Sequence record: NC_100371.1
DNA: 64,000 bases
Strand: one strand, 5' to 3'
From: a phage
Numbering within the stretch: the stretch's first letter is position 1; each line of letters begins with the position of its first letter. The notes below the pieces were generated by a model. It did not search any database. It saw only the letters and a list, made by a program, of their open reading frames with translations, and was not told the origin of the DNA. The position numbers and the translations under genes are program-made. Below are positions 1 to 51,150 of the stretch, piece after piece.

Positions 1-832
1 ACTTGTTAGGGTCGTATTTGTTCTTGAAGGTCTGAACCTCGTTAGCCTGTTTTGTCAAGAAAACCTGCGTATCTGTAAAGATTGCAGGATTTACTCTCGC
101 CTGACGTTGAGGGTACCCTGTCGATTGGTTAAACCACTGATTACAAGAGTAATCTCTCATATAGTCATAATCAGAGTATTTGTTTGCATCTTCGTTCCAA
201 CACATATTTAGGTTGGTACCGCCCATGCACACAATGTATTCTGCGATATACTTATCGCTTCTGGTAGGAATACCTATGAACCATCTATTAACAGGCTCAT
301 CCCAAGCTGTGCGCTCATCTTTAACGCAGATAGCAATCCAGTCATGTGTTCCTGTTTTCTTGCATACATCTCGCTTCATACCGTAGTAGAACTCTTTAGT
401 ATTCGGCTCAGGTGCATTTATCAGGTAACTCCATGCCTGATTTGCATAAGTTCCATTGGTTCGCGGGTCATGATCAAAGGCATACATGATGATCCTTTCC
501 CCACCAAGATGTTCGCCAAGAGTAACTTTGACATTCACATCGCCGTAACCATTGCGAACAACATCCATATTATCAATAGAGATGCCCCTAGGGGTGTAGG
601 CAATTTTCAGAGAGCTATCTTCACTGGTGCCTCCAAGTGTAATCCCTATGTTGTTTGTTGTCCCGTCGGCATATCTTACTGTGGCTTCCCAGCGTATTCC
701 GAAATATCCTGCATCATGGCTGACAATTTTCAGTGTACGAGCACCTGGGTGAGGTTTTCCAGGATCAGGCCAAGGGTCTGGGTGTTCGTGGACAGTCAAC
801 GACGTTCCGTTTTGCTCGTTAACCTGCAACAT
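1..832 (-). CDS. tail fibre-like structural protein, partial (runs off window start)
   Basis: Minus-strand frame has no stop codon from 934 down to 1; ATG at 832-830 preceded by GAGGCGG Shine-Dalgarno. Missing from ORF track because no stop lies inside the window; plus ORF 344..886 is its shadow. Confidence 0.5.
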   Translation of the reverse strand, partial: MLQVNEQNGTSLTVHEHPDPWPDPGKPHPGARTLKIVSHDAGYFGIRWEATVRYADGTTNNIGITLGGTSEDSSLKIAYTPRGISIDNMDVVRNGYGDVNVKVTLGEHLGGERIIMYAFDHDPRTNGTYANQAWSYLINAPEPNTKEFYYGMKRDVCKKTGTHDWIAICVKDERTAWDEPVNRWFIGIPTRSDKYIAEYIVCMGGTNLNMCWNEDANKYSDYDYMRDYSCNQWFNQSTGYPQRQARVNPAIFTDTQVFLTKQANEVQTFKNKYDPNK

Positions 833-934
833 TTTACCGCCTCTGCCGTTAGGGTTGAACTCCCATACGGCCTGTGTCTGCACTAAGTTGTTGTAGGTAT
901 TTCGTCTCTGATCATAAATCTCTTGGGTAACATC

Positions 935-2785
935 CTAGGTGACTGATCCAGCATCCATTCTGTGGAGTCGGACCATATACGATGTATCTCCTTCTACCGC
1001 AGGCTGAGTCCCATTCAGCCCGAAGTATACAGTATCGTTAACATGGAACTGCTTGTTTCTACCAACGGTATGCCACTTACCGTCAGAAGGATACGCAGGA
1101 ACTATGGTGTTCCAGTTCAAAGTCCTTGTCGTGTGAGTTCTTCCTGTGCCATGTTTGTCATGATAGGTTATTTTTACAGAGTACAGGCCACGTCTGTTAA
1201 CATTCCTGTTATACTGAGTAACAACAACTTCGTTGGCCCCGCCGTGGTTCCAGTTGGTGGAGAATTGGTAATTTGCATCTGTAACAACCGTACCCGCAGC
1301 ATTTACCAGTTCAATCTTGTCAATAATGAACGTAGCCCCCTCTGGCTGAGGCTTCAATTTCATCTTGACCGTGTCACCAATGTAAATATTGCTAACACTG
1401 CTAACACCGTTAACGTCAAAAATATCATCAACACCCCAACTGTCTACTGGGACATTTTTATACCAATTCTCAGGAACCTCTGTGAACCCCTGACTATTAA
1501 GTCTTCCGCCAAACAGGTTGTTAGAGCCTGCAAAACTTCCCCTTGGGATGCCTGACCACCAAAGTTTACCATTAACAACAGTAAAGGTACCTAAAAAACC
1601 TTCTCTGTGAATGCCCTGGAAATAAACACTCTCTGTCCAGCTAACTGGGAGGCGTTGCTCAACGTATTTGGCTGTGGCAAGAGCTTGATAGTGGATAAAA
1701 TTGGCCCTAGGGTTATTGTTTGCAGATTGTGCGCCAATATCATTACATAAGTTGCGAGAGAATCCGCGATACTGCTTAGTGCCATTATTGAAGAAAATGC
1801 CACTTGTTCCGTACCCACGAGCCATTATTACTTCATGGGTGTAGGTAATATTTAAGGAACGCCATGTATCATCTCCCCAGACATCTTGCCCGTAGAATAC
1901 GTTAACAAGCTGCTGATCATTAGGCTTGTGCATCCTCTGCGTTGCAATTATCGCCCCGTTCGGACCACACATGAATCCTTTCCACTCCTCATCTGCAGGA
2001 ATGCCTTTCAAATCGTTGCGAGTAATCTGAGCAGGGGGCCAAACAAGGTCGTTTCTACTGTTGTTTCTCAGAAAGTCGTATCCAGCAATCCAAAAACCTC
2101 TGGGCCCACCGAAAATAACAGAGTTGTCATGCACCTCGCAGTTGATACTTGGGTTTTTCCAAGGGCCTGTTTCAGGATTTTCCGATGTTTCACCAATCTT
2201 TACAGGGGTTGCATGCTGGTTCTTATCTACATGTAAAGATCCGTAGGTGTTGTTACCAGACCCGTACAGGTGTAAAATGCCGTCACCCTCAGCCTCTGCC
2301 ATAACCCAAACAGTGTTGTTAATACCGCCCATTACCTCGATAAGGCGCTCTGGGTGGGTGTCAAGGTGCAATCCTTGAACAATCTGTTCCGGAAGAGGTG
2401 TCCACTCGTTTACGCAAACATCGTTACCACCTGCCGCAGTGGATCCGATAAGACCTGCAGTGCAGCCGATGTAGAAAAACTGGTTATCAAAAGTCCGGAT
2501 CACAAACGCACGGTCTGCTCTCCACACATGATCAACATTCCAGGCCGTCTCGCTCGGGTAGTTTATAGGGTTACGATCCCCAGTGCGACACTCCCCGAAC
2601 TTGTTATAGCCAGTAATATTAAGCTGACCATCGTCAAAAAGTATAGCTAAGCTATTTACATAAGCTACTGTAGTGCTTGTACCGTCACTGTTGTCTATTG
2701 GGTATGACAGAACAGCAAGTTCCTTAACTCCACCCCTCTTATCGAGGAAATGACGACCAAGTTTTAGCAAAGGGATTGGAAGCAT
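935..2785 (-). CDS. tail fibre or tailspike-like protein (616 aa)
   Basis: Long ORF with GGAG RBS upstream; Gly/Asn/Thr/Trp-rich beta-type composition; sits in a run of fibre-like genes. Function from context only. Confidence 0.4.
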   Translation of the reverse strand: MLPIPLLKLGRHFLDKRGGVKELAVLSYPIDNSDGTSTTVAYVNSLAILFDDGQLNITGYNKFGECRTGDRNPINYPSETAWNVDHVWRADRAFVIRTFDNQFFYIGCTAGLIGSTAAGGNDVCVNEWTPLPEQIVQGLHLDTHPERLIEVMGGINNTVWVMAEAEGDGILHLYGSGNNTYGSLHVDKNQHATPVKIGETSENPETGPWKNPSINCEVHDNSVIFGGPRGFWIAGYDFLRNNSRNDLVWPPAQITRNDLKGIPADEEWKGFMCGPNGAIIATQRMHKPNDQQLVNVFYGQDVWGDDTWRSLNITYTHEVIMARGYGTSGIFFNNGTKQYRGFSRNLCNDIGAQSANNNPRANFIHYQALATAKYVEQRLPVSWTESVYFQGIHREGFLGTFTVVNGKLWWSGIPRGSFAGSNNLFGGRLNSQGFTEVPENWYKNVPVDSWGVDDIFDVNGVSSVSNIYIGDTVKMKLKPQPEGATFIIDKIELVNAAGTVVTDANYQFSTNWNHGGANEVVVTQYNRNVNRRGLYSVKITYHDKHGTGRTHTTRTLNWNTIVPAYPSDGKWHTVGRNKQFHVNDTVYFGLNGTQPAVEGDTSYMVRLHRMDAGSVT

Positions 2786-2796
2786 TGTGTTCTCCA

Positions 2797-2824
2797 GATA
2801 AGAAAACCGCCCCGTCAGGAGCGG
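2797..2824 (-). terminator. intrinsic terminator-like hairpin (minus strand)
   Basis: On minus strand CCGCUCC-UGAC-GGGGCGG (7 bp stem incl. one G-U) followed by UUUUCUUAUCU; lies between stop of 2834..4579 and start of 935..2785. Confidence 0.5.
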
Positions 2825-2833
2825 TCAGATATA

Positions 2834-4579
2834 TTAACGTTGTGCAATAACCACATCCACAATATCACCAACACCACAATATGTCAATTGTAGCAAGGTG
2901 ACACTGTTGGCTTTGTTGTTAATAACAGGAGTAGCCGACAGTATGGCATATTTATCGTGTAAAGTCACGTTGTGGCCTACAGCATCCTGAATGACATAGA
3001 TGATTGCAGTGAACGGGTAAGGTTTATCTTCAGCCGATGTTCCAGGCCATTGCCCTATTGTAAAATCCCCTTTCGCGTGGACAACATACATATTGGCCTG
3101 CCCGTTAGGTGTCCATGTCCCACTAGATGCGTCAGCCTCCTCTAAGTCAAACTCCACCTTCCCTGCATGGAAAGCAGGGGCAGTAATAGTTTTACCAGCT
3201 TCAATTTCTTGAGAGGTGGTTATCTTGCCACTAGAGTTAATGCCATTACAGACAAAGTTGACATTAGAGAAGTCTGGCAGCCACCCAGTCACTGTACCTG
3301 ATATTTCAAGGTTGTGAAGGTGGGTGGTGCCAGTCCCTGCTGCGTTTAAACTAACATCTCCATTTACCTGCAAGTTTCTGGTAACGTTGCAGTTTTCAGA
3401 GTTTGCAGTTGTTGCAGTTAAAGTGGTGGTTGTCAGCTCGGTAATTACACCTTTGTTGGCTGTAAGTCCTTCTCCTTCAAAAGTGGCACGCTCATTCACC
3501 CTCAGAGTATTTAAAGATATGTTCTGGACAGATGCTGTGCCACGAATGACTATAGATCCTCCAACCTCTAAATCTCCATTGATCAGTGCATCTCCCGTGC
3601 TTTCAATATAGCTAGGGTAGATCATGGTGCCATCTACAGAGTAGGTTATCCCTGTAACGGTGCCTGTCACCTCAAGGTTCTTAACCCTAGTGGTCCCATC
3701 AACCTGCAATGTCGGTTCGGTGGCTGCCTTCATGGCATTACCGCGAATGTACACGTAGTCAAAAAAGTTATTACCTAGACCATCAAAATGCACATCGTTG
3801 TTATTAGCCACTGGTTTCCCAGAAGTTATAGTGTCAGCTATAACTCTGTGAGTTGATACTTCATGAGGTTGCAGCTCTGTGCTCCTCCAGTCTGCATGCT
3901 TAGGATCGCTCCACGCAAAAGTCAGTGTAGAAGTATTTGCCGTAAGGATTAGGTTCCTGAAGCGTGCAGTAGAATCTGCTCCATTAACAGGTCCGTGTAA
4001 GGTAAGGGTACCCCCAACTATAGTGTTAGCAAGTTCTGTAAGACCTTTTACCACCAAAGATCCTACAGTAACTTTCATCCCCTCCATGGCTTTAAATATG
4101 CTATCCACATAGTCAACAACAAACTCTGTGTTTGCTATAGACTCGGACTTATCATCCATTGGAGGTGTAGGTACTCTCGGGTCACCTTCGAACCTTGGGC
4201 TGTTAAGTTTTGCGTAGTATTTTGCCATTACTGCAGAGTCGGTGTATAATCTCCAGTTCGGAGATTGTGAAGGATCTGCTGGCATCCTAACCGGGTTAGA
4301 TTTTGACGCTGCTGGAGCGTACCACCACTGAGGGCCTGTATCTCCTTTAAACTCATACAGCTGGTTAAAAACTGTTGTGGATGCACCATACGCCCAAGGG
4401 ATCGGTGGCGTTTTAAAATAAAGGTTGTCAAGCATGGCTTTTCGTACCGTAGGGATAGTGGTCCCATCCTCTACGACAACTTCATCCACAGCGTTACCGT
4501 TGACAACCAAGTGCAAACGTTCAGAATCAACAATTACTTGATCTACCGCCTGCTCGAAGCTTGTCATGTCTTGCGCCAT
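2834..4579 (-). CDS. tail fibre protein with repetitive beta-helix-like segments (581 aa)
   Basis: ORF; repeated V-x-G-x-V/T-G type segments typical of fibre/spike proteins; position in fibre module. Confidence 0.4.
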   Translation of the reverse strand: MAQDMTSFEQAVDQVIVDSERLHLVVNGNAVDEVVVEDGTTIPTVRKAMLDNLYFKTPPIPWAYGASTTVFNQLYEFKGDTGPQWWYAPAASKSNPVRMPADPSQSPNWRLYTDSAVMAKYYAKLNSPRFEGDPRVPTPPMDDKSESIANTEFVVDYVDSIFKAMEGMKVTVGSLVVKGLTELANTIVGGTLTLHGPVNGADSTARFRNLILTANTSTLTFAWSDPKHADWRSTELQPHEVSTHRVIADTITSGKPVANNNDVHFDGLGNNFFDYVYIRGNAMKAATEPTLQVDGTTRVKNLEVTGTVTGITYSVDGTMIYPSYIESTGDALINGDLEVGGSIVIRGTASVQNISLNTLRVNERATFEGEGLTANKGVITELTTTTLTATTANSENCNVTRNLQVNGDVSLNAAGTGTTHLHNLEISGTVTGWLPDFSNVNFVCNGINSSGKITTSQEIEAGKTITAPAFHAGKVEFDLEEADASSGTWTPNGQANMYVVHAKGDFTIGQWPGTSAEDKPYPFTAIIYVIQDAVGHNVTLHDKYAILSATPVINNKANSVTLLQLTYCGVGDIVDVVIAQR

Positions 4580-4588
4580 GATTTCTCC

Positions 4589-4780
4589 TTAAGCTTTTTG
4601 CTCTTCGTTTTTAACGTGGTCAGGGTGCTGGCAACCCCACCGGAGCGAGATGAATTTGCTAATAAGCTGGGGGCAGGCTACTGAAGGTGCGTATATCCAC
4701 GCATACCATTCAGGAAGCGTATCATTGTACCCCATATGAATAAACACCCCAGTCATCACTGCCATGCCTATGTAGACCAT
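4589..4780 (-). CDS. hypothetical small protein (63 aa), possible fibre accessory
   Basis: Short ORF directly downstream of fibre gene 4864..5910; no motif recognised. Confidence 0.25.
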   Translation of the reverse strand: MVYIGMAVMTGVFIHMGYNDTLPEWYAWIYAPSVACPQLISKFISLRWGCQHPDHVKNEEQKA

Positions 4781-4863
4781 AGCTTAGATTGGGACACTTT
4801 CGTAGGGTCATCCGATGCCGCAACCAACCCCCATAAAAACTGAGTTAATTTCATTTACCCTCT

Positions 4864-5910
4864 TTAAGCATAAGATATAGTGATCCATTGACCGTTTACA
4901 AATTTTTGAATGGCACCAGTCCAATAGTCGCCTTGATACGGGTGTTTATAGGCGTAATTGCCGGAGCACATTACATGCCCAGGGTATACTCTTGATTCTC
5001 TGTAGGTGGTTCTGAAACGGTTTGCTATCCTTACATCTTCAACACCCCTACTAGGCATAGGAATAGTAAGGTTACCACTGCTATCTGCGCTACTACCATT
5101 TACCCTGCGGACCACGTTTCTCCCACCAACTGTTGCATATTGACCCCTGGCGGTGTTATCGTTACAATCCACTCTTCCACCTATTTGAGCGCTGCCGCAG
5201 GATTGTTGTCCATTAACAGTGGCTCTTGGTATCGTTACCGCATTAGCATTTGCAGAGGAGCTTTTTGCATCATTGCATTCAAGATTCCCTTGGATAGCCA
5301 GTCTTGCACGGTTGGCAGTTATAGCATTAAGCTTCATAGCCGAAAACACAGGCTGCCCACCAGAAGGTTGAAATCTCCAACGGAAACCGTCTATTTGGTG
5401 AGAAGGATCATCAAGGTCTGTGCCGTCAGCGCCGCCGATGTTGTCCATAATCCAGAAATCCATCATCGTTTTGTCTGGAGTTATGGTGGTGTATATCGCT
5501 GCATTGTCTGTTGACGCGGATGCAAACTCGATTCTTTGAAGACCCAAAGTTTGAGTCTGGGTCATTGTGTCTCCAGTCTTGTCAACATACAGGTCATCCA
5601 TTTCTTCAGGCGAGTATACATTGAGGACTTTACGTGCAGCAGCTTTGTCTGGAACGTCTGCCAGATTATTAGTGACCCTTAAGAATCTATTATCCCATCC
5701 AGGGACAACATCTTCTGTTAAATGCTTTAGCCACGCAGAGAGCATGTGGAGTTCAAAGTTAACAACTTCACATGCTATCCTTTGTGTCATATCCCAACCT
5801 TTCAATCTCTCTTCTTTGTTCGGTTGAGACTTGTTCAACTCTCCTGTATTTTCAAGCACAACATCCTGATTGGCCCAAATATCGAGAGGGATAACTGGTT
5901 TAGTCATCAC
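4864..5910 (-). CDS. tail fibre protein, paralog A (348 aa)
   Basis: N-terminal (PLDIWA...KGWD) and C-terminal (KFVNGQWITISYA) segments shared with 6923..7963; contains VDKTGDTMTQ. Confidence 0.5.
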   Translation of the reverse strand: MMTKPVIPLDIWANQDVVLENTGELNKSQPNKEERLKGWDMTQRIACEVVNFELHMLSAWLKHLTEDVVPGWDNRFLRVTNNLADVPDKAAARKVLNVYSPEEMDDLYVDKTGDTMTQTQTLGLQRIEFASASTDNAAIYTTITPDKTMMDFWIMDNIGGADGTDLDDPSHQIDGFRWRFQPSGGQPVFSAMKLNAITANRARLAIQGNLECNDAKSSSANANAVTIPRATVNGQQSCGSAQIGGRVDCNDNTARGQYATVGGRNVVRRVNGSSADSSGNLTIPMPSRGVEDVRIANRFRTTYRESRVYPGHVMCSGNYAYKHPYQGDYWTGAIQKFVNGQWITISYA

Positions 5911-5997
5911 ATTCTCCTGAGAAAATTCCTTAAGGACTATTTTAACACTTTAGAGAACAAAATGCAAGAACGGCATCCTTACCGTTCTTACCTTTGT

Positions 5998-6312
5998 TTA
6001 CCTTTTACTATGCTCTACAAGCATGTGCAAAATCTTTTGTACATCAGCTCGGATACCGGAGACATCTGTCCTGACATCTTGCTTAAGGTCGTTAATATCG
6101 GCCTCTAGCTTACTTAACCGGGTCTCGATAATGGAATCAAGTCTATCTTTTGTAACCATGCTATTTTTCACTAAAATGAGGTCTTTCTCCAGCTCATCCA
6201 ACCTCTTGGAAATGCCTTTCCATTTGGTGTGCCACTGGTTGAAAGCCCATACACAGATCGGGACAACGGTACCCATGCAGATACCGTACAATGCCGCCAA
6301 ATCCAACTCCAC
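5998..6312 (-). CDS. small membrane protein with N-terminal TM helix and coiled coil (104 aa)
   Basis: Hydrophobic segment ALYGICMGTVVPICVWAF followed by heptad-like charged region (LDELEKDLILVKN...LSKLEADINDLKQDV). Confidence 0.4.
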   Translation of the reverse strand: MELDLAALYGICMGTVVPICVWAFNQWHTKWKGISKRLDELEKDLILVKNSMVTKDRLDSIIETRLSKLEADINDLKQDVRTDVSGIRADVQKILHMLVEHSKR

Positions 6313-6323
6313 AACACCTCCTC

Positions 6324-6908
6324 TTAGAGGGTAGGTCGTTCCGGGAAGAAAATGTCAGGGGCTTTAGATGTATCTATTTCAAGAAGTTTTACCCTGTACA
6401 TTTTCAAATCTCTGATGTTGCGTTTTTGGTCATCAGTAAGATCGTATTCAAGGTCAATCATGTCTTGATAGGCACCAATTCTAGCAGTAGCCCAAGCAAG
6501 TTCTGTCTCTATGACACCCTCTGCCTGTTGAACAAAGAATTCATTGTCTGTGACAAATTCATCACCAACTAAACGCAAAGCGTCGTGGTGGAGCATAATG
6601 TTTTCTGGTACCTCTTCTTTTTTGGCGATAACCACACGAAGACCTGGAGCAGGCCACAAGGCATCAGGTTCTTCTGTAGATGTCTTAAGAATACCCTTCT
6701 CGTCAACAAGTAAGAAGATACAGCCGGGATTTTCTTGTCGCAGTGTTCGTGATTGCACATACCAATCGCCATCATCATTACGTAAAAAATATCCAGTGTA
6801 TGCTGTGTAATCCTCAACCTCCTGAGGAGTCAGCTCCTTGGTCTCCTTGTTGGTGTAGTATTCGCCAGATCCCGGTTGGTAAAGTTTAAACTCTTGAAGT
6901 ATTTTCAT
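6324..6908 (-). CDS. hypothetical protein (194 aa), possible fibre assembly/accessory
   Basis: ORF immediately downstream of fibre paralog B; acidic; no motif recognised. Confidence 0.3.
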   Translation of the reverse strand: MKILQEFKLYQPGSGEYYTNKETKELTPQEVEDYTAYTGYFLRNDDGDWYVQSRTLRQENPGCIFLLVDEKGILKTSTEEPDALWPAPGLRVVIAKKEEVPENIMLHHDALRLVGDEFVTDNEFFVQQAEGVIETELAWATARIGAYQDMIDLEYDLTDDQKRNIRDLKMYRVKLLEIDTSKAPDIFFPERPTL

Positions 6909-6922
6909 GCTAGTCCTCCGAT

Positions 6923-7963
6923 CTACGCATAATTAACAGTGATCCATTGACCATTTACAAGTTTTTGTAAAGGTCCTGCCCAGTAGGTTGAACCACGCAT
7001 CTCTTTTTTATCACCAAAATGCCAACCTGTGACAACGTAGCCGTTGCGAACTGGAGATTCAGAAACACCATCAACAAGTCTTGCACCGATTCTGATATCC
7101 TGTACCCCTGTCTGCGGGATGGTGATCGTTACATCTCCGTTACCGTTAGCCGTCACTCCATTCACAGAGCGCACCACATTTCTGTTACCGACAACACAAT
7201 GCTGGCTTCTTACAACCATACTGTCACAACTTGCACCGCCATTAACATATACGGACCCAGCGGTCAACTGACTAGCCACATTACAGTTGGTGAATGTTGC
7301 TGTGCTGCTGATGGTAAGGTTGTTACACCGCATGTTATCGACAACTTCAACATTACCTACCACTTTCAACAGCGCACGGTTAGCCGTGATCGCGTTCAGG
7401 TACATCAAAGTGAACTCTGGATTAATGTCTGGCTGAGTTGGCTGGAATCTCCAACGAAACGCATCTACTGTAGATGTGCCACCATCATCAAACGCCCCAG
7501 TGTTATCACTTAACCCAAAGTCGAGAGTTGTCTTATCTGGACCAATAGTTGTCTCTATCCAAGCCTTATCTGTCTCGGCAGCTTTAAAGTTGATACGCTG
7601 CAAACCTAAGGGGCCTGTCATTGTATCGCCTGTAACTTTTACATACCTGGCGTCTGCCTCTTCCTTAGTGATAATCCCAAGGTTTCTACGGGCAACAGGA
7701 ATGTTCAAAAGATCGCTCAGGTTATTATCACGTACCAGATAACGGCCCTCTTGGGCAGGGATCTGCTCGTCAGCAATATATTTTGCCCAAGTCCCGAGCA
7801 TATTGAAAATATAGTTAAGTTCTTCACATGACGGCTTTTGACCAAGATCCCAACCTTTTCTCCACAAATCATCAATCGGGCGTAGCCTGTTCTGTCTGTG
7901 GGTGTTAGGCAGAACCTGATCCTCCTCTGCCCAAATCTCTAATGGAAAACTAGGTTTTGACAT
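6923..7963 (-). CDS. tail fibre protein, paralog B (346 aa)
   Basis: Shares N-terminal (PLEIWA...KGWD) and C-terminal (KLVNGQWITVNYA) segments and VKVTGDTMTG with 4864..5910; central region divergent. Confidence 0.5.
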   Translation of the reverse strand: MSKPSFPLEIWAEEDQVLPNTHRQNRLRPIDDLWRKGWDLGQKPSCEELNYIFNMLGTWAKYIADEQIPAQEGRYLVRDNNLSDLLNIPVARRNLGIITKEEADARYVKVTGDTMTGPLGLQRINFKAAETDKAWIETTIGPDKTTLDFGLSDNTGAFDDGGTSTVDAFRWRFQPTQPDINPEFTLMYLNAITANRALLKVVGNVEVVDNMRCNNLTISSTATFTNCNVASQLTAGSVYVNGGASCDSMVVRSQHCVVGNRNVVRSVNGVTANGNGDVTITIPQTGVQDIRIGARLVDGVSESPVRNGYVVTGWHFGDKKEMRGSTYWAGPLQKLVNGQWITVNYA

Positions 7964-7975
7964 TTTATCTCCTGA

Positions 7976-10048
7976 TTATGAGAAGTCTGGCGGAACAACA
8001 TCTTCTACATACCCTTTCAGAGCAACCTGCCCCATATGCAGAACAGTAGAATCTCTGGCGGTAACAGTGATGCTGTCAGACATTACTTGCGGGTATGCCC
8101 ACACATACTGTTTTACCTCAGGGTATCTATACTCTATGGTTGCCATGTTTCCGCAAATACATCTCCATAAAAATTCTTGGTAATTCCTGGTTGGGTCGTA
8201 GCCATATACCGGAGCAAGCTCTTTGCTAGGAACGAACCCTGCAAGGTATTGTATTTCAGACGGTTTCCAACCTAACTTAACGATAGGTATGTTTACAGAC
8301 TCTTTTGCCTTTTCAATACCTCCCTGCATCACCCAATCGTAGCACTCAGTGCAGAAGAAATCAAGAGCACCTGCTTCCTTTTTATATTGGTCAGCAAGGT
8401 TCAGTTTTTGCGTAAGCTCGGTTTCCATAATAGTGGGGAAAAACAGTAAAGCTGTCATCTGAGCCGATGCAGCGTGTGCTTTTATTGCCTTTGAAATGGC
8501 TGCAATACGAGCGCCAAGCTTACCACGACAAAATGCTACATACTTGTCATAAACACCGCCAGTTTTAGGATCGTCAATAGTCCCAATGTCTAGTGCATAT
8601 TCACCAGTCTCATCATAAAACGCCTGCTTTGTAGGGTAGTCATAAATACAAGGCTTACGAGTATCGGTATTGAACCACCACCACGGTTCACCAATCTGCA
8701 TAATCACTGGCAGGTTGTTTCTCATAGCGGCTGATGCAAAATTCTTAAATACTGCAGTAAGGAAATTCATGCCCTCTTCAATGGTTGGAGACAGGAGGTA
8801 ACTACAAGGCGTATAGCCTGTTTTAGCATAGTTATCGTTCCAGTCTCTCTGGGTCCATTCCAACGGACAGGCATCGCTATAAAGCTCAAAGCTTACAGAC
8901 TGCATAACGTCGAAGTCATGTCGTTTGGCATTGTACATAAAATCATCATGCCATTTATAAGCTGCAGCGTTTAGAGCTCCTGTTTTGTTTATAGACCATT
9001 GGGTTCCTGACCATGTGTAGTCATAATAATGGCTCATACCAACATAATGGTTTATGGTTCCTGTATAGCCCAGACGCTTGATATTGCTCAACACCCTTAA
9101 AGGGGATACGTTCCACATATCGTCATATGCTGTGCAGATCCCAACATCGTGTTCTTTCACCTGAATATTGTTAAGTTGCATCATTTTCCAGCCTGTGTCC
9201 GGCTGAAGAAGATCTAGACGCAACTCACACTCTACATTTTCCGTTCTCGGGTCTGTGCTATTACCTACCCAATCTTTAGGCATAAGTGGTATTAGAATCC
9301 TTCTCACCTGCCGAGGATCAACACCCATCATGTTGTTGTTCTGGTCCATCCCGACGCAGTCCTCGAAATCAATATGAATTTCTGCAACATTCTTATCCTC
9401 TGAGATGCTGACAGCATATTGAGCTAAAGGAACATAGATGATTGTACCATCAACAAGGTCTACAGTCATAATCATCTTTTCAGGGGTGGAGAAGTTGCTG
9501 GCATTGGTTATTGACATTCTGAACCAAAGCTTGGTGTTTCTCATCTCGTAGTGATCATCAAATCCAATGCCGAAATGGTCATACTTGTCAACTGTTTCCC
9601 AAATGCACCCAGCCATGCCCCCATATGTTCTTGACACTAAACGGTTAATACAGCAGTTATTATCCGCAACAATACAGGTGCTTTCAGTCTGCTGTGTGGT
9701 TGTAACCCAGTATCTTGGGTGAAACATTCTCTCCTCAACTGTATCCCAAGATATTCTGTCAAGATTCTCATCTGAAACTATTGTACATTTCGCTCTTTGT
9801 GTTCCAATCATAACCCCTTGGGAGTTTGATGAAAACTCCATAAAGAAGCTCCTTGGCAACCTGTTTGGCAATTTGTCAACAATTTCTACAGGGATCTCGA
9901 TACTGGTTGCCCCAACCGGGATAGTTACATCGCCCTCAACATGATCATAATCCCTACCCGGAACTGCAGTATCCTGAACTGTGCGGTAATGAAACCGTGC
10001 AGCCATTGTAGAGTAATCACGGTAAGGTTTAAAAACAGCTGTTGCCAT
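7976..10048 (-). CDS. large tail-associated protein, possible carbohydrate-active enzyme (690 aa)
   Basis: Long ORF rich in Trp/Tyr/Asp, embedded in fibre module; enzymatic role is a guess from composition only. Confidence 0.3.
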   Translation of the reverse strand: MATAVFKPYRDYSTMAARFHYRTVQDTAVPGRDYDHVEGDVTIPVGATSIEIPVEIVDKLPNRLPRSFFMEFSSNSQGVMIGTQRAKCTIVSDENLDRISWDTVEERMFHPRYWVTTTQQTESTCIVADNNCCINRLVSRTYGGMAGCIWETVDKYDHFGIGFDDHYEMRNTKLWFRMSITNASNFSTPEKMIMTVDLVDGTIIYVPLAQYAVSISEDKNVAEIHIDFEDCVGMDQNNNMMGVDPRQVRRILIPLMPKDWVGNSTDPRTENVECELRLDLLQPDTGWKMMQLNNIQVKEHDVGICTAYDDMWNVSPLRVLSNIKRLGYTGTINHYVGMSHYYDYTWSGTQWSINKTGALNAAAYKWHDDFMYNAKRHDFDVMQSVSFELYSDACPLEWTQRDWNDNYAKTGYTPCSYLLSPTIEEGMNFLTAVFKNFASAAMRNNLPVIMQIGEPWWWFNTDTRKPCIYDYPTKQAFYDETGEYALDIGTIDDPKTGGVYDKYVAFCRGKLGARIAAISKAIKAHAASAQMTALLFFPTIMETELTQKLNLADQYKKEAGALDFFCTECYDWVMQGGIEKAKESVNIPIVKLGWKPSEIQYLAGFVPSKELAPVYGYDPTRNYQEFLWRCICGNMATIEYRYPEVKQYVWAYPQVMSDSITVTARDSTVLHMGQVALKGYVEDVVPPDFS

Positions 10049-10734
10049 TAACCCTCCTGTCTAGTTGCGTTTACTGTAATACTTTCACAATAAATGGTTG
10101 TAGTGTCCCAATCAAGTCTTACGTCAGGAACATATAACAAAGTAGCCAGCCCACCAACCCCGAACTGATTTTCTTCCCACACTGATCCAAAGCCGAGAGC
10201 TGTAGAGTCCCCTTCAAAACCAAAAGCTTGTCCTTGCGACTCCGTAAGACGCAAATGACAAGGCAATGGCAGCATATCTAAGATTTGGTCGATAGACTGC
10301 AATATGTCAAAGCAAGTTTTTCTAATGTTTATGTCAAACCTGAAATTGTCACCTTTCCACGTATCGAAATTATCTCTTCCGAACAACTGTCGTAAGGTGG
10401 AGATGACATCTTCGCGAGTACCACCTCTTGATGATGCTGCCTGCTGAATAATCAGCGTAGCACGAAAATCCGCGTCTGAAAGACCATTCCTAAGAATACC
10501 AAGTTGATTACCAACTTCGTCAAGGTATCTCCCGCTGGCATTGTTAAGCAATCTTCCTTCAGCCAAGCCTACCAGCATTTTATCAACATTCTCCAACCTT
10601 TTAAGGTACACGGTTAAGAATGTGACTAAATTAACCTTCTCAGCCAGAAAATCCCCAGAGAGGTAATCAAGACCTCCCTGAACAAAATCTGGCAGAGTGT
10701 GGATGTGGTTGACATCCGACTTAATCTCTGCCAT
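10048..10734 (-). CDS. hypothetical structural protein (228 aa)
   Basis: ORF with start overlapping stop of upstream gene (translational coupling) within tail module. Confidence 0.3.
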   Translation of the reverse strand: MAEIKSDVNHIHTLPDFVQGGLDYLSGDFLAEKVNLVTFLTVYLKRLENVDKMLVGLAEGRLLNNASGRYLDEVGNQLGILRNGLSDADFRATLIIQQAASSRGGTREDVISTLRQLFGRDNFDTWKGDNFRFDINIRKTCFDILQSIDQILDMLPLPCHLRLTESQGQAFGFEGDSTALGFGSVWEENQFGVGGLATLLYVPDVRLDWDTTTIYCESITVNATRQEG

Positions 10735-10745
10735 ATCTCACCGCC

Positions 10746-12236
10746 TTAAATAGTTTGTTGGAAAGTTATATTACTTTCGTCTAGATCAAACACCTCAGTC
10801 ATGTTTGCAACAATATCGTTTGTGGTGTAAGCTTCATCAGAGGCCCCCACAGGTTTGACTTGAATTACAAGTCTGTTAAATCTGCCTATTGACACAGCAG
10901 CCGATGCAGCACCAACCAATTGGATATTGTACAATGTATCTGCAACATCCAGTCCGTTAACAACCTGCAAAAGAGCCTCTACAATGGCATCTTTTTCGGT
11001 TGTAGAAAGCGCAGCACCTGAGTAGGTAATTCTTACATCTAGGCGGTAGGTATTTGCCTTGGAGTAATAAATCCTTTCAGTCTGACCGTCTGATGTGGTA
11101 ATATCGTAGAAGATATTCCCATAAGTTCTGTTTGTGCAAGCTATGGTTTGATACAGCGCCTGACAGATATCCTCTGTTGCACCACCAAACACCACCACTT
11201 GAAACTTATAAGGTGGTATACCTTTCGCATCCGTTTTATCGGTGTTGTTAGAGAACACTCTTACTTTCTCAACACCCTTCACCTCGCTTACAGCGCTAAG
11301 GATTGCAGGACGGGTAGCTTTAGATGTCAACTGTTTAGTGCTGGAAGCTCTTAGGCGATACTCAGAGTCTTTCTCAACATCCCTGCCCTCATTGAATCTT
11401 TCTCGGTTGGTAAGCTTGATAAATCCACTGGGAGTAGGTGACATTGTTGTCACGGTTTCTGCCTCTCTTGACAGCTCACCCGCCTCGTTAGCGATAACAT
11501 CTAGGGTGATAGTTCTTTCCCCTACAATCGGGGATACTCTGAAATCTACCCTGCTATTAAGTCCAACTTGATCAAGATTCGAATTGTACCCTATCCACAA
11601 CGTCCCTGTCAACATATCTATCTGAATTAAATCATCATTCAGCAGGGTTGTATTATCGACAATGAATTGCTTAATCTCGCCGTAAAAGCTTGGCAAATCA
11701 GAAGAGTCCAGAGCCTTATCTGTTAAAACCAGACTTTTTGTTTTGATACTTCCGTCTGTCTGGTTGGTAATTTGAAAGTTGTATTTCCCAATTCTTAGGT
11801 CTGGAGCGTTTATTCTGTGAGCAATAAGATTTCCCGCCACCTGCACATCGTTGCTAAGAACAAAGTTGCCACTGTCCAGCGTATAAGTTTTGGAATCATA
11901 AATCATATTGTACGGCACAGTTGTATTGATTGTCAACTGGCAGGTACCTGATGATTTAGAACGGCCTCTTCGGTAAATACCCTGTCTTCCAAGAAGCTCA
12001 TCCAGGTAAATACCTTCTGCCCCATATAGCGTCTGTGATGCGTATACAGATGCTGCCATAAGAATAAGTTGATATTCTCGCTCGTTGAAAATAGTGGTCA
12101 GCTTATCTGCAACTGAGTTACTTTGTACGTTGAAGTTTTCGCCAAAAGCACGGATCAGGCTTTGCTTAGTTTCAACGATTAGGTCATTTAGGGTTGGTAT
12201 AACGAAACCAGCCTCTGTCAATCCATACTTAGCCAC
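10746..12236 (-). CDS. hypothetical tail/fibre-associated protein (496 aa)
   Basis: ORF downstream of J-like gene; Thr/Ser/Asn-rich. Confidence 0.3.
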   Translation of the reverse strand: MAKYGLTEAGFVIPTLNDLIVETKQSLIRAFGENFNVQSNSVADKLTTIFNEREYQLILMAASVYASQTLYGAEGIYLDELLGRQGIYRRGRSKSSGTCQLTINTTVPYNMIYDSKTYTLDSGNFVLSNDVQVAGNLIAHRINAPDLRIGKYNFQITNQTDGSIKTKSLVLTDKALDSSDLPSFYGEIKQFIVDNTTLLNDDLIQIDMLTGTLWIGYNSNLDQVGLNSRVDFRVSPIVGERTITLDVIANEAGELSREAETVTTMSPTPSGFIKLTNRERFNEGRDVEKDSEYRLRASSTKQLTSKATRPAILSAVSEVKGVEKVRVFSNNTDKTDAKGIPPYKFQVVVFGGATEDICQALYQTIACTNRTYGNIFYDITTSDGQTERIYYSKANTYRLDVRITYSGAALSTTEKDAIVEALLQVVNGLDVADTLYNIQLVGAASAAVSIGRFNRLVIQVKPVGASDEAYTTNDIVANMTEVFDLDESNITFQQTI

Positions 12237-12305
12237 GTCACTCCTCCGGTATGAAAATCTCTACAAGGTATTTTACCAAATTTTGTAACAATAGTCAATC
12301 TGAGC

Positions 12306-12334
12306 ATAAAAATAAACCCCGCCGAAGCGGGGCT
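12306..12334 (-). terminator. intrinsic terminator (minus strand) after J-like gene
   Basis: CCCCGC-UUCG-GCGGGG hairpin followed by UUUAUUUUUAU on minus strand. Confidence 0.6.
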
Positions 12335-12341
12335 TTAAAGG

Positions 12342-15300
12342 TTAGTCGTGAGACTCGTTCCAAGGTCCCTGGAAGCTTGAGTTAGAACGACTAACGATCA
12401 CAGTGGGACAGGAGATTGTGACACCTGTCACGCTAGACGTTGACCACGGTGTGTAAATCTCGATAACAATGTCTATAGTTTGTTCACCCAGACCTGTTAT
12501 CCCTACCGCACACATGCCGTTGTTGTCGTTAAAATACTTCTTGCCAGCAAGGATCTGATGACCAGCTATCCATGCATTCAGCTGGGAGCTGGCAAGAGTA
12601 CCATTCAGTTTAAAGAAGAATGTTACGTTCTTACCCTGACCTGAAACGTTATCTACGTATCTCCACCTCCAACGGCAAACCCTTTGCTGGGAGTTATATA
12701 CTGGAGCACAATCTCCGTAAGTCCTGTGTGCAACGATTGCACCTTCGAACTGGTTAGCACGGATAACGGAAGCTTCTACACGTCCACGGAATGTACCTCC
12801 TGTTGCATCTATGGTCCCTCTAAAGCTACCGTTGTTGGCATAAACATCCCCACGGAAGGTACCACTGGTGGCGTTAACTGCCCCTGTGAAGTTACCTGCA
12901 CTAGCGTTAATGTTACCTTTCACCCACACATCCATAAACTGGGCGTGCCCGTTCTTGTTAATATACCAACCGTATTTGTGGTACCCATTGCCATCGTAGT
13001 TGTTTGACGAAATTTCTTGCGCGATCTTGGCAGAAGAGATCGTGCCGTTCTCTATAAAAGCGTCTTTCAAGAACGCTTGGTTGTTCTTGATTGCGAAAGC
13101 AAGGGTTGCTGTCCCATTGCCCGGGTTGTATACCGCAAAGTTGTTTGCGCTAACCATGAAATATGACTGAACTTGGCCTCCAGAGCCTTCCATGCCTAAC
13201 TGGATACCTGCCACATACTTATTCCCTGCGGAGTCTACCTGTATTTTTGTGCCCCATTGAGCATTTACTTTGCCCTCTAAGTCGGTCACAGCCTTAGATG
13301 TTGTAGCCACTGCAGCTCTGAGCTCTGACACATCCCCAACATCATCAATGATCTCCTGCTTAGCAACAGCAAGTTCTTGACGAATAGCTGACGCTGTGCC
13401 GTTAATAAGATCCACGGTTGCTTTGTTGGTATCGGAAATTGTAGCATCCAGAGCTGTCTTTGTGGAGGTCAGTTTACCATCTAAATCCTTAATCGCCTGT
13501 TTGTTGGTAGAAATCTCCCCACGTGCAGAGGTTATCTGCTCTGACAGTGCAGAGGTTTTCTGATTCAACAAATCGGTGGTGGCCTTGTTGGTATTGGCAA
13601 TCAAGGTATTGAGATCAGTTTTTGCGGTAGTTATCTTACCATCAAGGGTGGTATAGTTTTTAGATACCGTCGCGTTTGTCTGACTAATCTTTTGATCCAG
13701 GGTCTCAGAGGTCTTGTTCAAAAGATCCACTGTCGCTTTGTTGGTGCTCAGGATGCTTGCATCAAGTTCCGTTCTCTGGGTGTTGATCTTGCCATCCAGA
13801 GTTTTATCTCCGGCAAGGTATCCGCTCTCCACACCATCTATTTGTTCTACCAACTCCCCTTTGGCTGCAACCAATTTCTCGTCTAAAGCCTCTGTCTTTT
13901 TGTTCAGAAGATCAGTGGTTGCTTTATTGGTTGTCTCGATCAGGGATGCCAGTCTTCCACTTTCAGTGTTCAGATCGTTGGTGAACTTGTTCTGTGCAGC
14001 AACAAGTTTCCTATCCAGAGCTGTGATATTTCCATTGACATCCTCAAACTTCTGAGTTGTCTCTGTAACTACCGCACCTATCCTATCTCCAAGTTGTTGG
14101 AATGCCTCATCTACCCTTCCGTCCATGTACTTGTTAAGCTCTGTGACACGATTTTCAACCTCCTCGATAGAGGAATCTAAAGTGCTCATCAACTCTTTAT
14201 AAGTTTCTGTCTTTTTAAATTCAGCATCTATCTGAGGCATCAAATCTTCAATAGAGGTGTAGCAGCGTGCAGCGCATTCTACAAACTGAGAACTACCAAA
14301 AGCGTTTGTGGTTCGAATATACCAATAATAAATCTTATCGTTCTGCAGACCTTCAGATGTCCAAGTTGAACCAACACCCATACGGGTGGCTTTTGAAGTA
14401 ACGGTTGCATCACTTGTGTCCGGCAACCTTGTCATACCAGATGTCCAAAAATCATACTGGGTGCTTACACTTGCTAAGTCCCTGCTGTGCGGAATCAAGG
14501 TGATAGCAAAGTATCCCTGCTTAACTTCTACAGAAACAGGAGCTTCAGGTGCTTGAATGTTGAACTCGCAGTAGGCTTCTGGAGATACACCACCTTTATA
14601 AGATGTTGCAACCACGGTTGCTGTGTATGACCCTTTGGTCAATCCTTCTACGCGGACAAACTGCTCGACTGTTTGTGCTGTCCAAATAATCTCTCCGTTC
14701 TTTCTTACCTGCACAATATTTTGAGCATAAGTTCCAACGTTGTCCCAAGCCAAAACACCATGAGTTACTTCCCCAGCTTGAAGAACAGAGTATCTGAAGT
14801 TTTGCGGTTGAGCTACGCCGGACGGGGATATCGGAATATCCACATCTCCAGAATCCGGAAGTTGCCCTGTGGCATCATTCCACTCTTTAGCATCTTGACG
14901 GAGTTTTACCTTGACACCGCCCTTTTTGGTGAACTCCCATTCAAGAACCCTCATTTCTTGGCCCACTATACCAATACTTGGAAGGTCCATCGTAACGTAA
15001 CGCCCAGGCTTAAATTTAAAACCCCGCATATTGCAGGTTACTTCAATAATCCTGCCAGCTCTGGCACGTCTTAAGAATATTGCGGAAACACGCTGAGCCT
15101 GATAAGGACTGGTAACAAAACGATAATCTATATCAATTATCTTTCTTTCTCCGTCCTTCTCTACCCATTCAGGTACGAACACCGACGGGAAGTCTGTTTC
15201 AGAATACCCTTTGGTTGGACTGGTGAATCTTCCGGTTATTGTGTTTGATCTTTTGTCGAAGGAGGCTTCAGGATAGATCTTAACCTCACCGCAAACACAG

Positions 15301-17749: not shown

Positions 17750-17810
17750 TATGCCTCCAGGTTAAACAATTATGATAGTTATTTTACCAGATTTTAAGTT
17801 AATACGCAAT

Positions 17811-32855: not shown

Positions 32856-33018
32856 TTTATAGCATCCTTATTAGTCATGTTGTGCACCATATTTGTGTAT
32901 TTTACCATGATTATAATGCATTGTCAATTTAACCTTTCAAGCAATCCAAAAATGGTGTGTCAAAACCATAAAAGCAAAAAGCCCCACCCGAAGGTGAGGC
33001 TTATACTAAAGTGTGCCC

Positions 33019-36414: not shown

Positions 36415-36455
36415 TAATGTATTTTACCACAAAGATACATCAAAAGCAACAATTT

Positions 36456-49661: not shown

Positions 49662-50012
49662 CTAACCAGTTGTTGACATTCGAATAACTTCTTCTGGTGG
49701 CAAAACTTTGGAAAATGTGCATCTTTTACCTCTCCCTTGTGTGGATATTTCAACCACTCCTGCACATTCTAAAGTTTTAACGCACGCTGCTGCTTTTGTT
49801 TTCTTTATCCCAACATCTGCTGCAATTTTCCTGGTGCTGGGTGTGAAGCGTGAATTTTCTCCAAGCTTATACCAGTTGTGCAGGTAGCAGTATACGATCT
49901 TGTCATATAAGTCAAGAACAATAACCTCCCCAGTTGTGCCATTCAAAACTTTTGACATAGACAGTATTTCAAGGGGGACTTTAAGATATAGCAGCTTATC
50001 CCCATCTTTCAT
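49662..50012 (-). CDS. helix-turn-helix DNA-binding protein (116 aa)
   Basis: Segment FTPSTRKIAADVGIKKTKAAACVKTLECAGVV resembles a winged-helix/HTH; adjacent to the repeat array. Confidence 0.4.
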   Translation of the reverse strand: MKDGDKLLYLKVPLEILSMSKVLNGTTGEVIVLDLYDKIVYCYLHNWYKLGENSRFTPSTRKIAADVGIKKTKAAACVKTLECAGVVEISTQGRGKRCTFSKVLPPEEVIRMSTTG

Positions 50013-50059
50013 ATCTCCTGATTCTCCTTGTGTGGCAATTTTCTTTAAAATAGCAGGGA

Positions 50060-50614
50060 TTACTCCCCGCTGTCAATAGCAAGACTCATTGCAATACGGT
50101 ATGCCTCTTCTAATGGTAAGAGTCTCCCCCACACATCCCAACCGACATCAAACTGCCTGCCAAACAACTGCTGTGTGGTTCCGTGAGCATGACCGAACAG
50201 TTGGACTGATCCGTGAGGCTTTCTGTTCCACTTTGCAAACTGGTAATGGCTCATACAGATCAAATTCTTGTTGTGGCGAAGCTCGTAATAATCTACAACC
50301 TCATGACCGAACTCTTTCATAATTCTGACAGTCGTCCTTGTGTCATGGTTACCACGAACAAGAATAATATGTCCGTTCAACATATTTAGAACATCTGGAA
50401 GCAATTTGTTGATATTCTTATCATTAGTGCACGCAATATCCCCCAAGTGAAACACAGTGTCTGCAGGTGACACAACAGAGTTCCACTTGGTGATGATTCC
50501 CGCATTCATACTGTCAAGATTGTGATCATACTGAGATCTGTGTTTTTGACATGAGTCGAACTCCATTACCCGCTGGTGGAGAAAGTGTGTGTCGCTTGTT
50601 ACAAAGTATTTCAT
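50060..50614 (-). CDS. calcineurin-like metallophosphoesterase (184 aa from ATG at 50614)
   Basis: Motifs SDTHF, GDI, GNHD, GHAHG; start with GAGGAA RBS; ORF-track start at 50719 would overlap the kinase. Confidence 0.6.
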   Translation of the reverse strand: MKYFVTSDTHFLHQRVMEFDSCQKHRSQYDHNLDSMNAGIITKWNSVVSPADTVFHLGDIACTNDKNINKLLPDVLNMLNGHIILVRGNHDTRTTVRIMKEFGHEVVDYYELRHNKNLICMSHYQFAKWNRKPHGSVQLFGHAHGTTQQLFGRQFDVGWDVWGRLLPLEEAYRIAMSLAIDSGE

Positions 50615-50621
50615 ACATTCC

Positions 50622-51032: not shown

Positions 51033-51150
51033 AGTAACTCTCCGTTTTAATTTTAATGATAGTATACCTAACTGTTTTGTTAATTTCAAGTGTTGACACC
51101 AGGTTATTTGTGTGGCAGAATAAAGGGACAAAATGACAAATGAGGAATGT

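Follow-up and report, generated by a model that had tools for sequence, protein, structure and literature searches.

The stretch of DNA analysed here, 64,000 nucleotides in length and referred to below as the window, is 99.7% identical to phage EI-SP-GF and 90–99% identical to 116 Vequintavirus records at the DNA level; its source is an E. coli myophage of the rV5/FV3 type that belongs to Vequintavirus. The locus of interest comprises two short tail fibre genes, here called copy A and copy B, within a run of minus-strand genes whose order (gp34 – gp33 – gp32 (chaperone) – gp31 – gp30 – gp29 – gp28, using the names of their rV5 counterparts) is that of the annotated rV5, FV3, WalterGehring and LL12 loci and also matches the annotated BASEL phages. 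Upstream lies a fibre or baseplate protein of 690 aa (gp34 orthologue, 7976..10048, minus strand) with Pfam matches to TIM-barrel_NCTSP (E 6.7e-80), NCTSP_N and Calx-beta, whose TIM-barrel is of the type found in the N4 non-contractile tail sheath. This is followed by copy A (346 aa, gp33 orthologue, 6923..7963, minus strand), a tail fibre assembly chaperone of the Mu U/lambda Tfa type (194 aa, gp32 orthologue, 6324..6908, minus strand) and a 104-aa protein (gp31 orthologue, 5998..6312, minus strand; phrog_5345, E 1.1e-48) exhibiting an N-terminal hydrophobic segment and then a coiled-coil-like region. A spacer of 87 nt precedes copy B and holds a terminator-like hairpin (5964..5991, minus strand) as well as a late-promoter-like motif (TGTTAAAATA, 5938..5947, minus strand) located 30 nt before the start codon of this copy. 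Copy B itself (347 aa from ATG, gp30 orthologue, 4864..5907, minus strand) precedes a frameshifted homologue of the 88-aa membrane protein gp29 (4589..4854, minus strand) and the next fibre gene (581 aa, gp28 orthologue, 2834..4579, minus strand; phrog_4549, E 4.2e-251), which keeps its synteny with relatives and appears to be transcribed together with copy B.

An earlier note on this DNA had located both fibre ORFs correctly, with protein ends KFVNGQWITISYA and KLVNGQWITVNYA; both lie on the minus strand. The ORF that it gave for copy B (4864..5910) exists, but its start is most likely the ATG at 5907 rather than the GTG at 5910: read from the sequence, an AGGAG box precedes this ATG by 6 nt but the GTG by only 3 nt, and the ATG start is also annotated in rV5 and other relatives. 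The small ORFs reported to follow each copy (194 aa and 63 aa) are likewise present; however, the 104-aa ORF after the chaperone gene had been omitted and the 63-aa ORF (4589–4780; phrog_1322, E 6e-22, profile positions 27–86) is the 3′ remnant of the 88-aa gp29 homologue, in which a 1-nt frameshift found in this window only has turned the TCAAACATA of all relatives into TCTACATA. This frameshift distinguishes the window from the rV5 locus, as does an in-frame stop in its gp27 homologue.

Copy A and copy B align over their full length with 43% amino acid identity and 58% positives (BLASTP, E 8e-95), and both cover the tail-fibre family phrog_4465 completely (positions 1–342 of 342; E 4.5e-171 for copy A and 1.8e-163 for copy B). 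Chance or low-complexity similarity was rejected: the Smith-Waterman score of the pair is 706 as against 37 ± 5 for 300 shuffles (z = 128), whilst the entropy of both proteins in 20-aa windows is normal (2.7–3.9 bits), and the similarity is thus not restricted to low-complexity segments, the outcome that the note had set against its own reading. The description of conserved ends around a divergent centre holds for the extreme N-terminus (50% identity) and the last 13 residues, with a C-terminal segment common to both copies (YW.G..QK.VNGQWIT..YA), but the alignment as a whole is a mosaic: identity peaks centrally at residues 106–150 (60–63%), with secondary blocks at residues 181–225 and 271–300 (~53%) and troughs at residues 46–90 (27–30%), 211–255 (27%) and 301–330 (~30%). 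The nucleotide sequences of the two genes are 52% identical, and only two repeats were detected between them: a 63-nt one (76%) at the 3′ ends and a 28-nt one (79%). The genes can be assigned to the known short tail fibre paralogue pair of rV5, with copy A corresponding to gp33 and copy B to gp30, a pair reported in 2013 (Kropinski et al., PMC3606486) and again in 2021 in the BASEL paper (Maffei et al., PMC8594841, S5 Fig D). With the chaperone gp32 included, the genes and their order are the same as in rV5 and nothing essential differs; the published identity of the Vequintavirus pair (42.3%) is in line with our value. A third fibre paralogue was looked for in the 64-kb window and none was found.

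The chaperone gene (Pfam Caudo_TAP, PF02413, E 1e-11, residues 121–192; phrog_136, E 9.7e-37) stands directly downstream of copy A, whilst the gene downstream of copy B is the gp29 membrane-protein homologue. A search with the chaperone by tblastn returned only itself in the 64-kb window, and a PDB sequence search with it gave nothing meaningful. Homologues of the 104-aa protein occupy the same locus position in genera with a single fibre copy, which marks this gene as an ancestral neighbour outside the duplication, and the remaining small ORFs are also present in these genera. The term cassette duplication does not therefore fit: the fibre gene alone was copied, beside one chaperone gene and ancestral neighbours.

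Comparison with the single-copy genera also reveals what copy B displaced. Avunavirus, Seunavirus, Henunavirus and Klebsiella phage Iguana_ER37, which we take to be Mydovirus-like, possess one fibre gene and, in the slot of copy B, a gene for a 157-aa polytopic membrane protein; this gene is absent from the window, and no relation between it and copy B was found. Copy B thus occupies the slot of the membrane-protein gene of its sister genera, preceded there by what look like its own terminator hairpin and late promoter. The hairpin has a 12-pair stem followed by ATTTTGTTCT, and a near-identical one is found in the copy B spacer of rV5; the spacers of L020 and L023 retain TTGCATTTT, and the sequence preceding it was read by eye, rather than by a scan, as able to pair. 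The promoter-like motif matches the rV5 late motif TggTAaAAtA (PMC3606486) and is conserved in the copy B spacers of rV5, L023 and L020; in the window, TGKTAAAATA occurs 5 times, always on the minus strand, where 0.44 occurrences would be expected.

Between the copies pS is 0.83 and dN 0.53: synonymous sites are saturated, and the duplication is therefore old. With dS at saturation along nearly the whole alignment, a sliding-window dN/dS comparison of the paralogues carries no information, and ortholog omega values and a relative-rate test were used in its place. Comparison inside the genus gave omega values of 0.024 (copy A) and 0.072 (copy B), with only 8 and 26 variable residues for the two copies across the genus sample; copy A is 99% identical to its rV5 and LL12 orthologues and copy B 95–98% identical to its own (96% to the rV5 protein). 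Purifying selection on both copies is thus strong in this genus and the duplication is now stable, in agreement with the published description of a pair without considerable allelic variation (PMC8594841). That copy B might be a pseudogene was ruled out by its low omega and by its conservation in three divergent lineages. Its evolution has nevertheless proceeded at roughly double the rate of copy A, with 70 unique changes as against 33 in Tajima's relative-rate test (p 3e-4).

These data bear directly on the origin of the pair. The earlier note read it as duplication and diversification of a cassette. For a cassette copied recently and still diversifying or being swapped, the tandem orientation of two similar fibre genes and the short stretch alike at the DNA level at their 3′ ends could be cited. 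This reading, which we regard as highly improbable, is already contradicted by the saturation of synonymous sites and by the low omega and few variable residues within the genus; moreover, the chaperone gene is present once instead of being duplicated, flanking inverted repeats are lacking and no invertible segment is indicated. The check for cassette exchange with related phages proposed there found no exchange of either copy inside the genus, and a search for the copy B tip among other groups of phages, where its presence would have pointed to such exchange, showed it to be confined to the genus. A second alternative would have copy B arrive horizontally, as a xenologue inserted from another phage rather than a duplicate made within the lineage. 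It replaces a different gene and brings a hairpin and promoter-like spacer of its own, and copy A is nearer to outgroup fibres (48–51%) than it is to copy B (44%), all of which would suit such an insertion. Against this, 165 of 200 neighbour-joining bootstraps recovered A and B as a monophyletic group (82%, in a tree that the length of the B branch may have distorted), the two have derived motifs in common (GLQRI, FRWRFQP and NAITANRA), the twofold faster rate of copy B explains its excess divergence, and among 50,697 phage records and metagenome hits no closer relative was found outside the two-copy lineages; we thus consider a horizontal origin very unlikely.

The two copies also differ in the N-terminal joint and in the tip. 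Copy A residues 1–108 match the short tail fibre of phage phiTE (9cuy) in a PDB sequence search with an E-value of 1.5e-19, as compared to 2.4e-8 for the copy B N-terminus; residues 1–70 of the copies are homologous to phiTE residues 3–92, which bind the wedge 1 protein. In the window, the wedge proteins correspond to the 496-aa ORF at 10746–12236 and the 228-aa ORF at 10048–10734. Among the 70 residues of the joint, 30 columns are conserved across 26 single-copy homologues; copy B deviates at 13 of them and copy A at only 1, and the near-invariant I-x-D-L-W motif of this joint is lost in copy B. At the other end, copy A residues 286–343 match the Mu fibre S (5yvq; phmmer E 1.4e-6), whilst copy B gave no direct match to Mu S in the PDB sequence search and is linked to it only via its homology to copy A. 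The earlier proposal of a duplicated receptor-binding tail fibre gene is accordingly well founded, given the full-length family match, the phiTE homology of both N-termini and the Mu homology of the copy A C-terminus. AlphaFold2 monomer models were poor (pLDDT 63 and 59), as expected for trimeric fibres, and too weak for domain mapping; their sole useful output was a Foldseek match of the low-confidence copy A model to the Mu fibre (5yvq_A, E 2e-7). Fibres of Rosemountvirus and Justusliebigvirus share 58–60% identity with the copy A tip, while the copy B tip is found at at least 90% identity only in Vequintavirus records and elsewhere at no more than 42%. In the clade of the window, the A and B tips are ~30–45% identical over the last 60 residues, with each tip type conserved. 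Of the two, copy A has stayed conservative, its baseplate joint being canonical and its Mu-S-like tip shared widely, and copy B has evolved fast, with an altered joint motif and a genus-specific tip. In a metagenomic sister clade (L020/L031–L034), on the other hand, the two paralogue tips are ~90% identical, so that keeping two copies does not require two different tips; any hint that the paralogues have exchanged sequence comes from this clade alone.

Several characterised systems resemble parts of this arrangement. In phage Mu (S, gp49; U, TfaMu; 5YVQ) the likeness concerns the tip of copy A, by sequence and fold search, and the Caudo_TAP gene that follows it, and both genomes encode two alternative fibre tips. 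Mu, however, alternates through an invertible G segment with S′/U′, whilst both fibre genes of the window are on the minus strand; in 2700–10200 only short, imperfect inverted repeats were found, none of which flanks the pair, and a search limited to the neighbouring ORFs found no invertase gene. An inversion switch of the Mu type was rejected on the basis of the same-strand genes and the absence of flanking repeats. Unlike the alternatives of Mu, both fibre proteins occur together in rV5 virions (PMC3606486); the window furthermore has one chaperone gene for two fibre genes and an N-terminal adaptor of Vequintavirinae rather than Mu type. The phiTE (Certrevirus) fibre 9CUY is homologous over its N-terminal 80–108 residues, which in phiTE make up the wedge 1-binding joint, but it is a single-copy protein of 554 aa with predicted coiled coil and Ig-like domains from a flagellotropic phage, and its shaft and tip are unrelated to those of copies A and B. 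Full-length homologues with 38–51% identity are the single fibres of Avunavirus, Seunavirus, Henunavirus, the Mydovirus-like Klebsiella phage and phi92-like phages; the single-copy phages share as neighbours the chaperone, the 104-aa protein, the ~88-aa membrane protein and the next fibre, and the single-copy Vequintavirinae genera differ in the 157-aa gene at the copy B position. With T4 gp12 the analogy is functional (irreversible binding of the LPS core): HHpred similarity to it has been reported for rV5 gp30 and gp33 (PMC3606486), but no gp12 chain was among our PDB sequence hits (E up to 1, both copies) or Foldseek hits, and gp12 differs in architecture and in its chaperone (gp57A).

Taken together, we consider it probable that the locus encodes two homotrimeric fibres that share a chaperone but dock differently on the baseplate and recognise different epitopes of the LPS core, the product of an old duplication in which only the fibre gene was copied. 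Each gene would give rise to its own Mu-S-like homotrimer, and the single Mu-U-type chaperone (6324–6908) may fold both via their shared C-terminal segment; for this double service, the shared C-terminus and the lack of a second chaperone gene are the sole basis. Copy A would dock on the canonical baseplate-wedge site, as does the phiTE short tail fibre, and copy B on a different site or partner; if the two tips bind different LPS core epitopes, the phage would have two ways of adsorbing irreversibly to E. coli with differing core types. In rV5, gp30, gp32 and gp33 have all been detected in virions by mass spectrometry and its authors suggested recognition of two LPS chemotypes (PMC3606486), whilst LL12 requires the LPS outer core (PMC7229145). 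A stronger version of this proposal, plausible although we would place it somewhat short of an even chance, holds that, following the duplication, both ends of copy B took on new targets, the altered joint a second baseplate site or another fibre and the genus-specific tip a second LPS-core epitope, while a frozen shared C-terminus kept both fibres dependent on the single chaperone; the sister clade, with its near-identical tips and apparent tip-conversion patches, would then represent an earlier stage.

Two competing explanations concern function. The copies could be redundant, binding the same LPS-core sugar from equivalent baseplate positions so that the second merely adds avidity or robustness: the BASEL authors called the paralogues very similar, and one secondary receptor shared by all tested Vequintavirinae is compatible with their data (PMC8594841), to which the near-identical tips of the L020/L031–L034 clade can be added. 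The strong divergence of the conserved tip types in the clade of the window and the loss of family-invariant residues from the copy B joint speak against this, and redundancy rarely keeps both copies at omega below 0.1 through synonymous saturation; we judge it unlikely. Alternatively, copy B could be attached to fibre A or to another fibre (e.g. the gp28 or gp34 homologue), or A and B could form heterotrimers. The departure of its joint from the family consensus would be in keeping with such a branched or mixed fibre, as would the complex multi-fibre baseplates of phi92 and rV5-like phages and the phiTE long fibre, which is thought to touch the short one. However, the copy B N-terminus is still homologous to the phiTE joint and heterotrimers are improbable at 43% identity with shaft indels, leaving this explanation distinctly unlikely.

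Phages of the rV5 type are used in biocontrol of E. coli O157 and ETEC and in phage products, and their host range rests on a many-fibre baseplate. The notion of a diversifying module is not borne out by the saturated synonymous sites and the low omega values: the short-fibre pair is a fixed, stable scaffold rather than a variable cassette, which is useful to engineers, and it is in the large lateral fibres, not in this pair, that host-range variation of the genus is located. What is added here to a known pair is incremental, namely the replacement of a membrane-protein gene by copy B, its own promoter-like spacer, the near-identical tips of the sister clade and an asymmetric divergence concentrated in the baseplate joint; these points leave the general picture unchanged and supply concrete hypotheses for baseplate cryo-EM and knockouts. 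Should the re-targeting of copy B prove true, the pair would represent a natural before-and-after series for a myophage gaining a second fibre for irreversible adsorption.

The short-fibre locus of this Vequintavirus holds two conserved paralogous tail fibre genes, copy A and copy B, together with one chaperone gene and a distinct spacer ahead of copy B; the two proteins have diverged asymmetrically at the joint (the N-terminal segment homologous to a baseplate joint) and at the tip (the C-terminal part). Every gene in this part of the window lies on the minus strand, and the gene order is that annotated for rV5: the 690-aa gp34 homologue (7976–10048), fibre A (gp33 homologue, 6923–7963), the 194-aa chaperone (gp32 homologue, 6324–6908), the 104-aa gp31 homologue (5998–6312), fibre B (gp30 homologue, 4864–5907), a frameshifted gene for a small membrane protein (gp29 homologue, 4589–4854), the 581-aa fibre gp28 homologue (2834–4579) and the large Ig-like fibre gp27 homologue (2–2785), which carries an in-frame stop.

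Over 4500–8100 the window shares 99.7% DNA identity with Escherichia phage EI-SP-GF, and 116 phage records match this stretch at 90–99% DNA identity, nearly all of them from Vequintavirus (rV5, FV3, LL12, BASEL isolates). Over 1–12700 identity to EI-SP-GF drops to 97.4% and the alignment has 11 gap openings, and thus the flanking fibre genes are more diverged than the short-fibre locus, or mosaic. About 95% identity to this E. coli Vequintavirus locus is also shown by 16 to 21 GenBank records that are named ‘Campylobacter phage’ (MG0656xx) and give C. jejuni as host, an assignment that looks doubtful. The stop in the gp27 homologue lies at 935–937, after codon 616, whilst the full-length homologue is a lateral Ig-like fibre of 1877 aa (rV5/FV3 gp27); beyond the stop the same frame still matches FV3 gp27 for 927 residues (94.6%), as far as the edge of the window. 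Either the large fibre is truncated or the stop is an error of sequencing. Upstream of fibre A, the 690-aa protein exhibits Calx-beta, NCTSP_N and TIM-barrel_NCTSP domains, the N4 gp65-like module that a 2026 preprint ties to NGR glycan binding in Vequintavirus. Far from this locus, the sign of the GC skew, negative up to there, turns positive near 51 kb (about 50000–52000), consistent with a switch of coding strand from the structural module to the next.

The earlier note described both ORFs and their C-terminal peptides accurately. Full-length alignment of the proteins gives 43% identity and 58% positives (E 8e-95), and the local alignment scores 706, shuffled sequence 37 ± 5 (z 128): since local sequence entropy is normal, the similarity is real and not a product of low-complexity segments. 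The description of conserved ends and a divergent centre holds for the first 30 and last 13 residues, but the best block is in fact central, with identity peaking at 60–63% over residues 106–150; residues 181–225 and 271–300 are also well conserved, and residues 46–90, 211–255 and 301–330 only weakly. The genes share 52% DNA identity and no word longer than 15 nt, and the only repeats detected between them are 63 nt (76% identical) at their 3' ends and another stretch of 28 nt. As judged from an AGGAG box 6 nt ahead of it, the ATG at 5907 is probably the start of copy B. The small ORFs reported after each copy, the 194-aa chaperone and a 63-aa ORF, are present, although the list was incomplete: the 104-aa ORF also follows copy A, and the 63-aa ORF corresponds to the 3' part of a conserved gene of 88 aa (rV5 gp29), frameshifted in the window only. 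Near 4772–4778, the sequence is TGGTCAAACATAGG in all relatives, EI-SP-GF among them, and TGGTCTACATAGG, with a base fewer, in the window; the change is either a mutation private to the window or an error of sequencing.

Both copies match tail-fibre family phrog_4465 end to end, with no Pfam model found for either. Their N-terminal 80–108 residues are homologous to the phiTE short tail fibre (PDB 9CUY; E 1.5e-19 for copy A, 2.4e-8 for copy B), in which residues 3–92 form a trimeric joint that binds the baseplate wedge 1 protein (PMC11972413). At its tip, copy A shows homology to fibre protein S of Mu (5YVQ), and in a Foldseek search with a low-confidence model of copy A, 5yvq_A was the sole significant match. 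The 194-aa protein carries a Caudo_TAP domain in its C-terminal part and so fits the layout of modular Tfa chaperones, where fibre binding falls to a variable N-terminal domain and trimerisation to a conserved C-terminal one (PMC9608196).

A neighbour-joining tree unites the copies in 165 of 200 bootstraps and places copy B on the longer branch; against the outgroups they share the derived motifs GLQRI, FRWRFQP and NAITANRA. When Av-05 serves as outgroup, Tajima's relative-rate test assigns 70 unique changes to copy B and 33 to copy A (p 3e-4); with SalP219 the counts are 68 and 40 (p 0.007). Of 89 columns with conservation of 85% or more across 26 further homologues, copy A deviates at 11 and copy B at 23; the excess sits in the N-terminal 70 residues (1/30 for A, 13/30 for B), where copy B has lost the I30-x-D32-L33-W34 motif, and 13 of its 23 deviations recur in a copy B orthologue of 78% identity. 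Fibre tips of Rosemountvirus and Justusliebigvirus share 58–60% identity with the copy A tip; the copy B tip finds identity of at least 90% only in Vequintavirus, and at most 42% elsewhere.

A single fibre gene is present in Avunavirus (Av-05, 18-1-2), Seunavirus (SalP219, GAP31), Henunavirus (Hena1) and Klebsiella phage Iguana_ER37, which we take to be Mydovirus-like. Their order is fibre, chaperone, 104-aa gene, 157-aa polytopic membrane-protein gene, ~88-aa membrane-protein gene and next fibre; the conserved 157-aa gene (6449–6922, 6497–6970 and 5841–6314 in the sister-genus sequences L004, L005 and L015, and in others) has a homologue with the precomputed Pfam label Phage_phiTE_239. It is found nowhere in the window and bears no relation to copy B. 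From this synteny and absence it follows that the fibre gene alone was copied and that the copy stands where the other genera have the 157-aa gene; this member of a trio of small membrane-protein genes among the fibre genes has been lost from Vequintavirus in the strict sense. Within this trio in the tail-fibre operon, the 104-aa protein, whose gene and the ~88-aa gene flank the 157-aa gene, has transmembrane and coiled-coil segments.

The spacer ahead of copy B is 87 nt long, with a terminator-like hairpin at 5991–5964 and the motif TGTTAAAATA at 5947–5938. TGKTAAAATA occurs five times in the window against 0.44 expected, always on the minus (coding) strand (5938–5947, 12269–12278, 17780–17789, 32898–32907, 36420–36429), the first two sites lying just upstream of gene starts, and it resembles the late-promoter-like motif proposed for rV5 (PMC3606486). 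The spacer motif is kept at the same place in rV5 and two divergent metagenomic lineages; at the matching junction of the single-copy phages, an overlap of the 104-aa and 157-aa genes, it is missing. Neither a second chaperone gene nor a third fibre paralogue was found within the 64-kb window, and an inverted-repeat scan gave nothing suggestive of a Mu-like invertible segment.

The arrangement is unchanged in three metagenomic contigs (L023–L025) of ~75% DNA identity to the window, with protein identities of 88% (A), 77.5% (B) and 78% (chaperone) and both tip types conserved. A more distant clade, L020 and the IMG/VR contigs L031–L034 (118–141 kb; 65–70% DNA identity), is also two-copy: here the N-terminus of the second copy is clearly of B type, yet its last 59 residues are ~90% identical to those of its own copy A, which makes an A-type tip the probable starting state of both copies; the B-type tip in the window's clade is derived. 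The tip segments (last 177 nt; 864–1041 and 3078–3254 in L020) share 73–85% nucleotide identity between copies in L020 and L031–L034, with 46–69% at third positions, whilst outside the 3' ends the divergence between the paralogues matches that in the window. B-type residues occur in the tip segment of the L031 copy A, and patches of gene conversion between the tips are suggested in this clade. Two copies are retained without a strict need for different tips.

The earlier note had read the pair as cassette duplication and diversification; a recent diversifying cassette is contradicted by both age and selection: between the copies synonymous sites are saturated (pS 0.83; dN 0.53), and within the genus pooled dN/dS is 0.024 for copy A (9 orthologues, 8 variable residues) and 0.072 for copy B (11 orthologues, 26 variable residues). 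As neither copy has a near-neutral region among these orthologues, this is an old duplication whose two copies are functional and stable in the genus; even the copy B N-terminus is constrained (omega 0.065). We propose that the genes would encode two separate homotrimeric fibres, with the single chaperone acting on both via their common C-terminal segment, copy A presumably occupying the canonical wedge site and copy B another site or partner. Rival explanations are that a second fibre confers redundancy or avidity, that the proteins form a branched or mixed fibre, and that copy B is of horizontal origin.

The pair is a real feature, correctly annotated and published for the genus, and hence already known: rV5 gp30 and gp33 are 42.3% identical, gp30, gp32 and gp33 were detected in virions by mass spectrometry, and recognition of two LPS chemotypes was proposed (Kropinski et al. 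2013, PMC3606486). The paralogues have further been related to Mu GpS/GpU, without considerable allelic variation (Maffei et al., PMC8594841), and the requirement of LL12 for WaaC, WaaF and WaaG indicates the LPS outer core (PMC7229145). In the two-fibre model the tips may recognise different LPS-core epitopes, and the details added here to the published pair are incremental and testable.
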